From Alphaproteobacteria bacterium (lineage in GTDB: Bacteria; Pseudomonadota; Alphaproteobacteria; Rs-D84): a DNA stretch of 64,000 bases. How positions within the stretch are numbered: position 1 is the stretch's first letter; the number at the start of each line of letters is the position of its first letter. Below, piece by piece: positions 32,582 through 38,161 of this stretch. The notes beneath the pieces are model-generated. The model searched no databases and was not told the origin of the DNA. It saw only the letters and a program-made list of their open reading frames with translations. The stretch spans positions 215,892 to 279,891 of the forward strand of contig JAWPOF010000007.1 of NCBI GenBank assembly GCA_033345275.1, in the 5' to 3' direction. A program made the translations under genes and the position numbers.

Positions 32582-35500
32582 CTATAATCCTAAGTTAGAT
32601 ATAGCGTCTTTCATTGCATCACCAATCATCCATGAACTCTGTTCTGTCAATTCCTTTCGATAATCTTCGTATGCATGACCAGTGTAACCTTGAATATATC
32701 CTTCTGTCTGACCTACTTCTGCTAGTTGTGATCCGAGTATCCCCCTGTTCGGATTGAGCGTATCAACTTTGTGCGCTTGTTCGTGTGCAAGTGTGCGCAT
32801 TACGTCTCTAAAACTCATATCAGGAAAATGTCTGCTACTTATATACACATGACTATTTGTTTGAAGCCCACGGACAGTTTCAGCCATGCCGAAATCTTTA
32901 ACCAGATCTCTGACAGCAAAATCTGAGTGTTTTACACCCAATTTATCATCAGCGATTTCAAATATTTCTTTACAAAGTTTTTCTCTCTCTTTAATTGACA
33001 ATGCATTCCATCTTTTTGCGCGGTTGTAAATATTAGGGTTTTTCGTAATAATATCTTCATACACCGACACACGTTTAGAAACAAAATCCTGCACAAATTT
33101 AAGTTCTTGTGTTGTCCTGTCTACGCCTGCGTGCAAACCAGCCGCTTTATCTATTTTTTGTACATTTTCAGATTTTGCGTTTAAAAATTCTTGATATTTT
33201 GTTTTTGCGTTGTTTGTTATATCTAATACGCTCTTGTCTTTTTCTTTAAATATCCTTAGCACAGTTGATTCGTCATAGTCGCCATACTCTACATATTTTA
33301 TCAGCTCTTCAATTTCGGCGACTGTCAAATTGTTTTTTTCTGCCATGTCCACAAAGTCGTCATCGACTTGTACCTCATAAGGATGCGCTGCGCTATTCTG
33401 TTGCATTTCACGTTTCAAAGCAGATATTTCAGGATCAAAAGTTGAATAGCTTGCACCCTTTCCTGGTGGTAAACTTTTTACGTCCAGTTCTGCAGCATAA
33501 ACTTTAGCTGCATCTTCAATTTGTTCCTTGCTCCAGGATTCCAAGCCTGGGATTTTTTCGTATCCATTTTCCCATTTGTATGTCCCATCAGCAAAAGCCT
33601 TGTCCTTAAGCTTTGCATATGTATCGTATGAAAAAGAATTATCATCTGCATCATATTTTTTATGAAAATCCACCCACAGCTTTCCCGCTTTGTTTCGGGC
33701 AGCTTCAGGCGTTGACCGATCGTCCCAATTCTTTGCATATTCTTTTACTTTGTCTAAATTATTTCTAAAAGATTCTTTAAATTTATCGAAAGTTTGATTT
33801 TCTGGTGCGTATTTTTCATATAGTGCACGCCATTCTGCTTCCTCTTGTGCTGGTGTCCTTTTGGGCGTTGTGGGTGTGGCGACAGGTTTTGTTTCTGCTG
33901 GCTTTGGCGCGACTTTTGGTCCAGTTGGTGCATTGTTAATAGTTTTTGTTTTCCTTACTGTGTAATAATGACTGTTGGTTTCTGATATCTCCAGACCTTC
34001 TTTCTTTAAATCAGCTTCTAACACTTTCCATTCTTTATCAGATAAGTGTCCTTTTGGAATATGTAATTCTTTTTCTGTTCCTTTTTTGATTTTGTCTGCG
34101 TGTGCATTAAATTCGCTGTATACTCTATTTCTAATGTCGGATACAGCATCTGGATATACACGTTTTTGACGCATAATCATAACATTGCCAGATGGCACTA
34201 CTTCCAAATTGTCTTTGGCCAAAGATTTGTTCAATGTTTCCCATTCCGTATCAGCTAGGTAGTTCTTTTGAAATACCACGGTTCTGTCTGGATTATTTTT
34301 TAGTGCTGGTTTTAAATCGTTATACCTGTCACCAAGCGACTTTTCTATCTCTTCAATACTTTTTCCTTTTGGGGTAGAATCCTTTGGTTTTGGTGTCGTT
34401 GTTCCCTTTTCTGGTTCTTTGGGTTTTGTTTCATCTGGTTTTGGTGTTGCGTTTTTCCCTGGCATATTATCTATGCGTTTTAATACTTCATCTTCTGATA
34501 TATATTTGCCAGTTTTTGTGTCTTTATATCTCACCACACCATTGGCAGATTTTTCTTCTTTGACGCCTATCTCAGCAAGCTCTTCTTCCCATGTTTTATT
34601 TGTGCCAGATGCAACATCGTCAATTTTACCTGCCGCGGGTGCCATTGCTCCGGCTTTAGCAGCAGCTTTTTGGCCTGTTTTCGACATTGCAACTACATCA
34701 TCGGTAACATCATCAACTTTCAGTATTTTCAAATCTAACCATCGTGCTTGTTCCTTTTTGGAAATGTGTATCAAGTTATGTTTGAACGATTGACGTAGCC
34801 CGGCCATTATGCCACCACCGATTAGTGTCGCAAACGTAGCAGCTGTAGCGACTTTTTTCGTGGCTAGTAACCTTTTCTCGTCACTAGTTAGTTGGGTTCC
34901 ATAATATGCACGAATTGACTTCTCTAAATCTGGTTCACGATTTTCGCCAATATAACCAGATAATTCTCCTTTGTCGACTATTGCAGATAGGTTTTTTTCA
35001 TCCAACATCCCCAATAATCGTTCTGTTTGTTTCGCAATTTGTTTGTTCTGGGTTTCGTTGAACTGCTTAGAACCTTCCATAATACGTGCTATGTGTTTCT
35101 TCATAACCCCATTAGCACAGATTGAATTGTTGTTACTACAACGTGCAGCATCCACCAAGAAAGCTTCTGCCCAATCGTTTATCTTTTCTTCAGTAACAGC
35201 CTCTGTTACAAGTGCAGCACCTTCTACGACGGACAACGCCCACACGACTGGCCCACCAGCGGCAGCGGTAACCAAAGTCAACGCAACCATACCTGTTGTT
35301 TCAGCGACTTTTTGTACATTGCTGACATATTTAGCATCCTTCAAAACACAGGTGCCCATTTCTTTGTCCCATTCCATCCCCCTGGAATTTGGATAATCTT
35401 TTTTGAATCCTGCATTGAAAGAATCACACTGTTCTTTATTTGCCAAAGTACAACTTTTACCAGTAAATGAACCACCTTCGCTTAAACAAAGTAAACCTTG

Positions 35501-38161: not shown

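Follow-up and report, generated by a model that had tools for sequence, protein, structure and literature searches.

The stretch of DNA analysed here (the window) comprises 64,000 nucleotides of contig JAWPOF010000007.1 from an alphaproteobacterium of the order Rs-D84 (assembly GCA_033345275.1). It contains an uninterrupted 5.6-kb gene for a protein of up to 1859 amino acids (aa), called here the giant gene and the giant protein. The giant protein is best explained as a phase-variable, Sec-exported, disulfide-rich member of a lineage-specific polymorphic family with interchangeable C-terminal enzymatic modules, and in this case the module is a putative gluzincin-like metallopeptidase. The probability of this reading is put at roughly 0.55. 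A sequence-only reading of the window had described the gene as encoding a secreted, effector- or toxin-like protein of a host-associated bacterium. Coordinates are collected in Table 1. Residues are numbered throughout from the first possible start codon, a TTG, and not from the ATG.

A modular family in a gut symbiont lineage

A search of 5.8 billion proteins with the giant protein recovered 89 relatives. The named members are all recorded as "hypothetical protein", and the members with the zincin domain that were checked carry no functional annotation. The giants of the family range from 1200 to 2700 aa. They have the first ~1190 residues, the trunk, in common at 26-88% identity, and the C-terminal ~415 residues are common to a subset of relatives only. 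The last 300 residues of 41 trunk-bearing relatives form groups of 18, 12 (the zincin group, including the giant gene) and 3, together with seven singletons. The tail of the 18 relatives, the commonest type in this set (alignment A5), has no Pfam or PDB match. Other tails can be named. P0015 ends in a Zeta_toxin domain (83 bits) and P0009 in a Kdo/WaaP-type kinase domain (51 bits), and these apparently toxin-type C-termini agree with the effector- or toxin-like build that had been proposed.

The zincin module is the commonest tail and is found in nearly all of the short-trunk relatives. It occurs as a unit in many relatives of ~1000 aa and in some small proteins. Two HExxH modules each are present in P0020, P0023, and P0129, and in P0022 the zincin is internal and is followed by another module. 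The shorter relatives, at ~1000-1100 aa, are built from a signal peptide, the distal part of the trunk (corresponding to aa 590-1060), and this C-terminal module. This make-up indicates that the Cys-rich distal trunk with its possible hydrophobic hairpin is the conserved core of the family.

In species-representative genomes, 41 of 41 loci lie in metagenome-assembled genomes (MAGs) of 'Candidatus Enterousia' or allied uncultured Alphaproteobacteria, and these MAGs were obtained from yak, sheep, goat, buffalo, deer, and termite guts. Members of the Candidatus Enterousia lineage (order Rs-D84) have genomes under ~1 Mb from which most biosynthesis is absent, and they are inferred to live as obligate symbionts or parasites of other cells (PMC12306168). 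The proposed origin from a host-associated bacterium is in keeping with this genome-reduced gut symbiont lineage. The family is unannotated, lineage-restricted, and modular. On another Enterousia-like contig (L005, 1-1906 and 8001-16091), no more than 8 kb separates two giant genes, one of more than 2246 aa and one of 2696 aa, that lie beside a tyrosine integrase gene. The 2696-aa gene is followed by an overlapping open reading frame (ORF) of 102 aa that matches no family.

The C-terminal zincin-like domain

The C-terminal domain had been singled out for the motif TLAHEQAHKV, a candidate zincin active site. This motif is present, and no relative of the domain, even at ~20% identity, has lost the HExxH. 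A third zinc ligand had been suggested as something to look for, and a conserved candidate, Glu1840, was found 47 residues after the first His of the HExxH. Word-indexed searches with the C-terminal part returned just 2 matches each. An exhaustive profile (hidden Markov model) search with the C-terminal domain returned 544 representatives at E<=1e-3, which are sampled by alignments A1, A3, and A4. In A1 (11 sequences), the invariant residues are H, E, H, Glu1840, and one Ile, and nothing else. In A3 (42 of the 544), again only H, E, H, and the Glu are invariant. A4 has the residues of HExxH unchanged throughout and the Glu conserved to at least 90%. The domain has an extended signature of its own, HExxHxxDxxxPNxGxLGxQ...YRxxLTEQSS, which is preceded by ~240 helical residues that begin with EW..LW..YAP.NQTF.

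The C-terminal part was modelled with AlphaFold2 from a 23-sequence alignment. The predicted local distance difference test (pLDDT) of the core is ~90-98. The modelled core consists, in order, of a three-strand sheet, the HExxH helix (model positions 500-518, pLDDT above 90), and a Glu-bearing helix (model positions 554-572). This modelled arrangement is that of a zincin of the gluzincin type with a minimal fold, and in it Glu1840 would act as a zinc ligand. A non-protease fold together with an unconserved HExxH had been named as grounds for giving up the protease assignment; the domain models as zincin-like and its HExxH is conserved.

The best weak profile matches of the domain, which are below significance, are proabylysin (E = 0.04), HtpX, and WLM. 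Searches with individual members gave weak matches to DUF6782 and SprT-like proteins (~2e-4, below the Pfam cut-offs), YgjP, Tox-MPTase2, and M48. With Foldseek, the weak matches (E 0.06 or worse) are deuterolysin, SPRTN, selecase, and SprT-like proteases of phages. These weak matches in sequence and fold are all minimal zincins. It is concluded from the alignments and the model that the C-terminal domain represents a new clade of zincin-like domains with its candidate active site intact, and that it is a putative protease.

An invertible segment upstream of the giant gene

A segment of 146 bp separates the giant gene from a divergently oriented invertase gene, and it was found in both orientations in public metagenomes. 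The segment is opposite to the window in runs X1, X2, X4, X5, X12, and X26. The breakpoints are identical in all of these (38166/38167 and 38312/38313, with a 4-nt ambiguity of AACG/CGTT). Run X7 has the orientation of the window. Both junction types are present within one sample in X3 (depth ~40, with junction depths of ~18-24 each) and in X18. In the genome locus L001, the flanks are collinear with those of the window and the segment is inverted (96.6% identity in the opposite sense). The arm in common is merely 4-7 nt, which makes an artefact of assembly at k = 31 or higher implausible. Inversion of the 146-bp segment thus occurs naturally.

Both ends of the segment lie in sites of the Din type. 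The AA cores are located at 38167-38168 and 38311-38312, and the arms of the two sites share only AACG(W)TT. For comparison, the Din-family site hixL reads TTCTTGAAAACC-AA-GGTTTTTGATAA and mix reads ...CCAAACC-AA-CGTTTTT... (PMC3241671, Table 3). No other copies of the switch sites were found in the 64-kb window, so the invertase appears to be dedicated to the giant-gene locus. The longest inverted repeat in the window, I1 (38033-38062 and 38225-38254), was considered as the switch boundary and was excluded by the real breakpoints. This repeat is 30 nt long and 80% complementary; one of its arms lies in the coding region near the signal peptide and the other inside the invertible segment.

The invertase matches the NCBIfam profile NF009949 (master DNA invertase Mpi family) with E = 1.3e-75 and 253.6 bits, which is under the equivalog cut-off of 272. 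Orthologous invertases (72-74% identity) are present in the same position beside a homolog of the giant gene in four further species (L008, L010, L012, and L015), and the arrangement of invertase and giant gene is conserved in six genomes. The junction signature was found at nine loci, including the window. The TTGATT end lies beside the gene in six of them (the window, L002-L004, L010, and L015) and is flipped away from it in three (L001, L008, and L012). The signature is also present upstream of P0007, a 49%-identical paralog without an adjacent invertase. The gene had been described as simply bounded by a recombinase cluster. The cluster does adjoin it, and beyond that the adjacent invertase and the 146-bp element appear to form a conserved upstream switch.

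A second recombinase ORF of the Mpi family (38876-39403, minus strand, 175 aa) converges on the full-length invertase gene with an overlap of 83 bp. It matches profile positions 59-200 only; the N-terminus with the catalytic Ser is missing and the helix-turn-helix is kept. It may be a remnant, or it may bind DNA and modulate the switch. A similar truncated recombinase copy is present in L001 (8660-9172).

The inner half of the gene-side site can possibly supply part of a promoter. On the minus strand it reads TTGATT, and this lies 17 nt from TACAAA (38157-38152), which is 8 nt before the ATG. The -10-like hexamer belongs to the fixed flank and reads TACAAA, AATAAT, AATAGT, or TATATA depending on the species, and it ends 6-10 nt before the ATG. 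No Shine-Dalgarno sequence was seen in any of the ON-type genes compared. The closeness of the hexamer to the ATG and the missing Shine-Dalgarno sequence suggest that the transcript of the giant gene is near-leaderless. When the segment is flipped, ATCCGA stands at the -35 position and the giant gene is faced by a terminator-like hairpin. From these elements we infer ON/OFF control through a split promoter, with the window in the ON state. The 146-bp element and its invertase probably switch the giant gene on and off.

Start, export signal, and trunk

The 1859-codon ORF that had been reported is intact. Its listed TTG is merely the first possible start, and the true start is probably the ATG at 38143 (codon 7), where close and distant homologs begin; this start would give 1853 aa. 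A Sec signal had also been proposed. In the N-terminus MICRKLVFYCFMACLPIITWA, followed by SE, a basic n-region precedes a hydrophobic core and a cleavage site of the AxA type. Equivalent signals of the signal peptidase I (SPase I) type are present in ~30 relatives, for example ...VYA/AD and ...GVA/DN (the slash marks the cleavage site). A conserved "CLP" raised the idea of a lipoprotein. This was dropped after inspection of the ~30 N-termini, where the sites are of the AxA type; there is no lipobox, because the position of the Cys relative to the cleavage site is not conserved.

The whole protein has no match in Pfam, NCBIfam, or PDB sequence searches. It fits the description of a modular effector- or toxin-like protein, and it is not assignable to a known toxin family, as had been stated. 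Pfam and NCBIfam contain no match for a C-terminal beta-barrel, RTX nonapeptides, or YD repeats, and the modelled C-terminus is helical followed by the zincin. They likewise give no trafficking domain of the kind found with the two-partner route of type V secretion (T5SS TPS), type VI secretion (T6SS PAAR/Rhs), type VII secretion (T7SS LXG), or similar systems.

The N-terminal third had been called coiled-coil-like. AlphaFold2 does show long helices there, at low confidence. The helical domain of aa 60-270 is also found in a separate set of envelope proteins of the same lineage. These are ~1000-1300 aa long and possess CarboxypepD_reg beta-sandwich domains and a C-terminal OmpA peptidoglycan-binding domain, and they have only aa 60-270 in common with the giant protein. 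In them, the domain with the glycine zipper sits between the beta-sandwich part and the OmpA domain. A single pass through the inner membrane would place the OmpA peptidoglycan-binding domain in the cytoplasm. By this analogy the glycine-zipper domain is read as an envelope-association module and not as an inner-membrane anchor.

The region described as dense in Cys over ~600 aa is indeed so, and its length is ~690 aa (aa 325-1015). Many of its Cys are invariant across 32 relatives. A trunk model from 32 sequences has a pLDDT of 75-94 at aa ~446-946 and is poor at the N-terminal helices and the hydrophobic segments. Foldseek comparison of the trunk model with PDB found nothing at E below 1. 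Two or more hydrophobic Gly/Ala-rich segments had been noticed, and three are present (aa 233-258, 955-991, and 1103-1123). It is possible that aa 955-991 form a hairpin. Its hydrophobic halves are each merely ~13-15 residues long, and an invariant CxxxxxxC-A (aa 1008-1016) comes after it. The charges that flank the hydrophobic segments do not resolve the topology. By the analogy with the OmpA-type proteins, the "internal transmembrane segments" of the sequence-only reading may not span a membrane in the producer. The conserved trunk ends at ~aa 1190. A possible internal duplication was seen in the Cys-rich core (window 35300-36400, aa ~590-960), where ...YEFEFKDLD...LCLIWGLKGG...C...C resembles ...IDFLFKKLD...LLCLSEGG...C...C. 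It is marginal (z = 4.6 against shuffles, with one shuffle scoring higher).

Between the trunk and the C-terminal module, two linkers rich in proline, threonine, and lysine (P/T/K) were found (aa 1239-1267 and 1415-1437), in agreement with the spacers that had been reported. The duplicated ~40-aa unit that had been reported also holds up: its two copies (aa 1295-1334 and 1366-1406) align far above shuffled sequences (z = 8.8). Each copy is predicted to be a small beta-alpha-beta-beta domain. The linker of aa ~1107-1306 varies in length among strains, and all 82 codons that are gapped against L001 fall there. In-frame length polymorphism was observed in a low-complexity stretch of it (window ~34391-34638, aa ~1175-1257), with a skip of 246 bp in run X26. 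Run X1 has an apparent skip of 512 bp at 33924-34437.

Intactness and selection

Indels inside the giant gene among independent metagenome contigs are +12, -3, -12, +3, -3, and +12, all multiples of three. The indels in the ~650-bp spacer downstream of it (31933-32581), where they break frame among strains, are 1, 2, 6, 1, 1, and 1. Compared with the syntenic ortholog in L001 (GCA_045591585.1), the ratio of nonsynonymous to synonymous change (pN/pS) of the trunk is 0.31 (25 nonsynonymous and 22 synonymous differences). That of the C-terminal module is 1.39 (41.5 and 7.5 differences), with the catalytic residues unchanged. The contrast between trunk and module has a Fisher p of 0.002. The giant gene is intact and under selection.

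The idea of a decaying pseudogene, or of an artefact of assembly, with an HExxH by chance, is refuted. Disruption of the gene had been raised as a possibility beforehand, and only the missing database family and the AT-rich composition speak for it. The 5.6-kb ORF is uninterrupted in many independent metagenomes with in-frame indels only, the trunk is under purifying selection, and the 89 and 544 homologs have invariant Cys and catalytic residues. A pseudogene is excluded. As for the composition, the gene has 39.0% GC. The claim that it lies in AT-richer DNA is correct relative to the left (hisS) flank (44.3%) and incorrect relative to the right flank (38.2-46 kb, 36.1%).

Proposed mechanism and competing explanations

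The proposed mechanism begins with the switch. The adjacent Mpi-family invertase, judged by its adjacency and by the type of the sites, would flip the 146-bp segment at the two Din-type sites. In the orientation of the window, TTGATT would serve as a -35 box set 17 nt from the -10-like hexamer, and the resulting ON transcript would be near-leaderless. With the segment flipped, the -35 box would be lost and the hairpin facing the gene would give the OFF state. The protein would then be exported by Sec and cleaved after Ala27, and its invariant Cys would form disulfides outside the cytoplasm. More speculatively, the glycine-zipper domain could hold the protein at the envelope, and contact with a partner cell could be made through the Cys-rich core and the hydrophobic hairpin. 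The C-terminal module, carried on flexible P/T/K linkers, is predicted to be a zinc protease that acts on proteins of a partner or host, either at the surface or after translocation.

Several observations weigh against this interpretation. At the giant locus and at the four other family loci examined, there are no genes for an outer-membrane secretion system or for immunity, and no known trafficking domain. The C-terminal domain has no significant match to a peptidase family or a solved structure in Pfam, NCBIfam, PDB, or Foldseek searches. A match to OspF/SpvC (VRP3/SpvC) in paralogs is sub-threshold or borderline on re-scan, and it was discarded as a sign of a eukaryotic target. A strict sigma-70 scan does not call the split promoter, because the -10 hexamer has no terminal T. 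The raised pN/pS of the tail could mean relaxed constraint instead of an arms race. The RNA evidence is weak: parts of the gene are covered at low depth by contigs of a single run that is guessed to be RNA. Finally, the three hydrophobic segments could instead make the giant protein a resident membrane protein.

This last point leads to the main rival, which is regarded as unlikely. Here the giant protein would be a resident of the producer's own envelope, with the hydrophobic segments (aa 955-991 and 1103-1123) as inner-membrane helices, the Cys-rich region as a periplasmic ectodomain, and the zincin acting in cis in the periplasm or cytoplasm, for example in the processing or turnover of envelope proteins. 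The family-wide conservation of the three hydrophobic segments and the missing outer-membrane secretion partner are consistent with it, as are the membrane proteases HtpX and M48 among the weak matches. The K/P-rich linker of TonB spans the periplasm, and the linkers of the giant protein resemble it. Swappable tails with a Zeta toxin among them are a poor fit to a housekeeping role, as are a tail pN/pS above 1, ON/OFF phase variation, and several paralogs per small genome. The short halves of aa 955-991 also count against this rival, and the charge flanks are uninformative.

A classical interbacterial polymorphic toxin, with the tail delivered to competitors and a cognate immunity protein in the producer, is rather improbable. 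The conserved N-terminus and the variable C-termini are what would be expected of one. Zeta toxin is a kinase of bacterial cell-wall precursors, and it is among the tails. In addition, small ORFs abut the stop codons of P0020 (102 aa) and P0015 (76 aa). These small ORFs match no family, however, and the 650-bp spacer downstream of the giant gene contains no credible ORF for an immunity protein and has the frame-breaking indels. Silent or orphan cassettes were sought by tblastn of 238 family proteins against the window, and nothing was found outside the giant gene. None of the trafficking domains of T5, T6, or T7 systems, Rhs, or haemagglutinin type is present. A classical toxin with immunity is less likely at this locus.

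It is very doubtful that the zincin is a self-processing or maturation protease that releases or activates the giant protein or neighbouring modules. Minimal zincins of the SprT/WLM type are often self-cleaving, and the family offers an internal zincin in P0022, doubled zincins in P0020, P0023, and P0129, and a zincin tail in nearly all of the short-trunk relatives. In the giant protein, the zincin is at the extreme C-terminus and is the sole enzymatic domain, so nothing lies downstream of it to be released. A pN/pS above 1 would also be unusual for a domain that recognises a conserved site in its own protein.

The preferred reading of an exported, phase-variable protein has a bolder form that is held improbable. 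In this form the family would be a self-contained device for effector delivery, so far unrecognised, in obligate symbiotic or parasitic Alphaproteobacteria of the gut. The Sec-exported trunk would be locked by disulfides, anchored through the glycine-zipper domain, and bound to a partner cell; the hairpin would insert into the membrane of that cell, and swappable cargo (zincin, Zeta kinase, Kdo-type kinase, and others) would cross. An unusual inverton would gate the device across the population by exchanging only the -35 half of the promoter from which a leaderless mRNA is made.

Relation to known systems

The concept of polymorphic toxin systems (CdiA, Rhs, MafB, and similar) reportedly comes from the comparative genomics of Zhang, Aravind and colleagues. 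The giant protein resembles these systems in its conserved trunk with interchangeable C-terminal enzymes, in a tail that evolves faster than the trunk, and in Zeta-toxin and metallopeptidase tails, which are typical toxin modules. It differs in having a Sec signal only, with no trafficking domain and no Rhs/YD or haemagglutinin repeats, and in having no immunity gene or orphan cassette at the locus. Its trunk is a disulfide-rich alpha/beta structure with hydrophobic helices, by prediction, and has no Pfam, NCBIfam, or PDB match.

The upstream switch can be compared with the Mpi promoters of Bacteroides fragilis and with Hin and Gin. An Mpi-family invertase beside a short invertible segment upstream of a gene for a surface or exported protein is common to both, and the hix, gix, and mix sites have the same 12-2-12 layout with an AA core (PMC3241671). 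In both, the two orientations exist side by side in gut populations (Mpi is summarised in PMC4747536). Unlike the Mpi systems, the host here is an alphaproteobacterium with a genome under 1 Mb and not a member of the Bacteroidales. Only the AACG/CGTT core is common to the arms, and two half-site types are combined in each site. The crossover also appears to fall inside the promoter spacer, so that only the -35 box would be swapped and no whole promoter is carried.

Minimal gluzincins and SprT-like zincins (proabylysin, selecase, SprT/SPRTN, and WLM, as well as DUF6782, YgjP-like, and Tox-MPTase2 proteins) have a small alpha/beta sub-domain with an HExxH helix and a downstream Glu helix, like the predicted core of the C-terminal module. 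That module differs from them in its own extended signature and in the helical region of ~240 aa that always precedes the core, and all matches to them are below significance. MARTX and the large clostridial toxins are likewise very large exported proteins in which a hydrophobic helical region is combined with one or more enzymatic effector modules set apart by linkers, and some relatives of the giant protein have two or three modules. The giant protein possesses no RTX repeats, cysteine protease domain, or CROPs. Its effector is C-terminal, which reverses the order. The giant protein is not placed in any named family, since it has no known trafficking domain, no immunity gene, and no significant match to a peptidase family.

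Candidatus Enterousia (Rs-D84) is a widespread uncultured lineage of the gut and rumen. A 5.6-kb gene with paralogs, fast-evolving swappable tails, and a DNA switch of its own is a strong candidate for a molecule by which these bacteria deal with a partner or host. What appears to be new is a family of proteins whose fold is unmatched, a clade of minimal zincins with 544 representatives, and an Mpi-type inverton outside the Bacteroidales with a crossover that seemingly splits a promoter. If the switch and the protease are real, the orientation of the switch in metagenomes could be used to follow how host immunity, phage, or partner availability select on this lineage.

Table 1. Coordinates of the giant gene, its predicted domains, and the upstream switch in the window
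Feature	Position	Strand	Remarks
Giant gene	32582..38161	-	1859 codons counted from the first possible TTG; stop codon 32582-32584
Sec (SPase I) signal peptide, aa 7-27	38081..38143	-	MICRKLVFYCFMACLPIITWA, cleaved before SE; from sequence features and equivalent N-termini in ~30 relatives
N-terminal helical domain, aa 60-270	37352..37984	-	Also present in OmpA-type envelope proteins of the lineage
Glycine-zipper-like hydrophobic helix, aa 233-258	37388-37465	-	Within the N-terminal helical domain
Cys-rich region, aa 325-1015	35117..37189	-	35/39 Cys
Alpha/beta core of the Cys-rich region, aa ~446-946	35324-36826	-	Confident AlphaFold2 model, no structural match
Long hydrophobic segment, aa 955-991	35189..35299	-	Helix, GGP turn, helix; family-wide conservation
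Third hydrophobic helix, aa 1103-1123	34793..34855	-	
Linker and repeat region	33851..34447	-	Linker 1, two ~40-aa modules, linker 2
C-terminal module, aa 1443-1859	32585..33835	-	Starts EW..L...YAP.NQTF, then a helical region, then the zincin-like core
Zincin-like core, aa 1686-1859	32585-33106	-	
HEQAH, aa 1793-1797	32771..32785	-	Candidate zinc-binding/catalytic motif on the predicted active-site helix
Glu1840 in L-T-E-Q-S-S	32642..32644	-	47 residues past the first His; candidate third zinc ligand, gluzincin type
Invertible segment, 146 bp	38167..38312		Between the giant gene and the divergent invertase gene; both orientations in public metagenomes
Gene-side recombination site	38155..38180	+	GTACCAAAAACC-AA-CGATTAAATCAA; Din-type 12-2-12, AA core at the breakpoint
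Invertase-side recombination site	38299..38324	-	CCTTTTTAATAG-AA-CGTTTTCGGATT; Din-type 12-2-12; outer flank conserved in six species
Mpi-family serine DNA invertase, 200 aa	38356..38958	+	Pfam Resolvase E = 5.5e-30; divergent from the giant gene

Neighbouring genes and minor observations

An anti-phage defence role was considered and set aside, as PADLOC is blank for the giant protein, the recombinases, and the neighbouring 175-aa protein described below. Rfam and ARAGORN found only two distant tRNAs and nothing near the giant gene. The spacer downstream of the giant gene contains two terminator-like hairpins on the minus strand (32369-32348 and 32143-32125). A deletion variant of 159 bp (31935-32095) is present in it in sample X1.

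Beyond this spacer lies hisS (30640-31932, minus strand). It is 70% identical to its counterpart in L001 (synonymous divergence, dS, ~1.1), and the rest of the syntenic genome is 97-99% identical. This divergence against its surroundings suggests allelic replacement of hisS by recombination beside the giant gene. Further to the left, a 369-aa protein with a signal peptide (28438-29547, plus strand) has a weak match to an autotransporter beta-domain (E = 3.8e-6) and is conserved in L001.

On the other side of the recombinases, 39485-41400 is the most AT-rich stretch (33-37% GC). It contains an ORF for 175 aa (39485-40012, minus strand) with no Pfam, NCBIfam, or PADLOC match, which is followed by ~1.4 kb without long ORFs before thrS. 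Downstream of thrS, a gene for a radical SAM/SPASM protein (43285-44589, plus strand) lies beside one for an M42 aminopeptidase (44633-45697, plus strand). These two may be a peptide-maturation pair.

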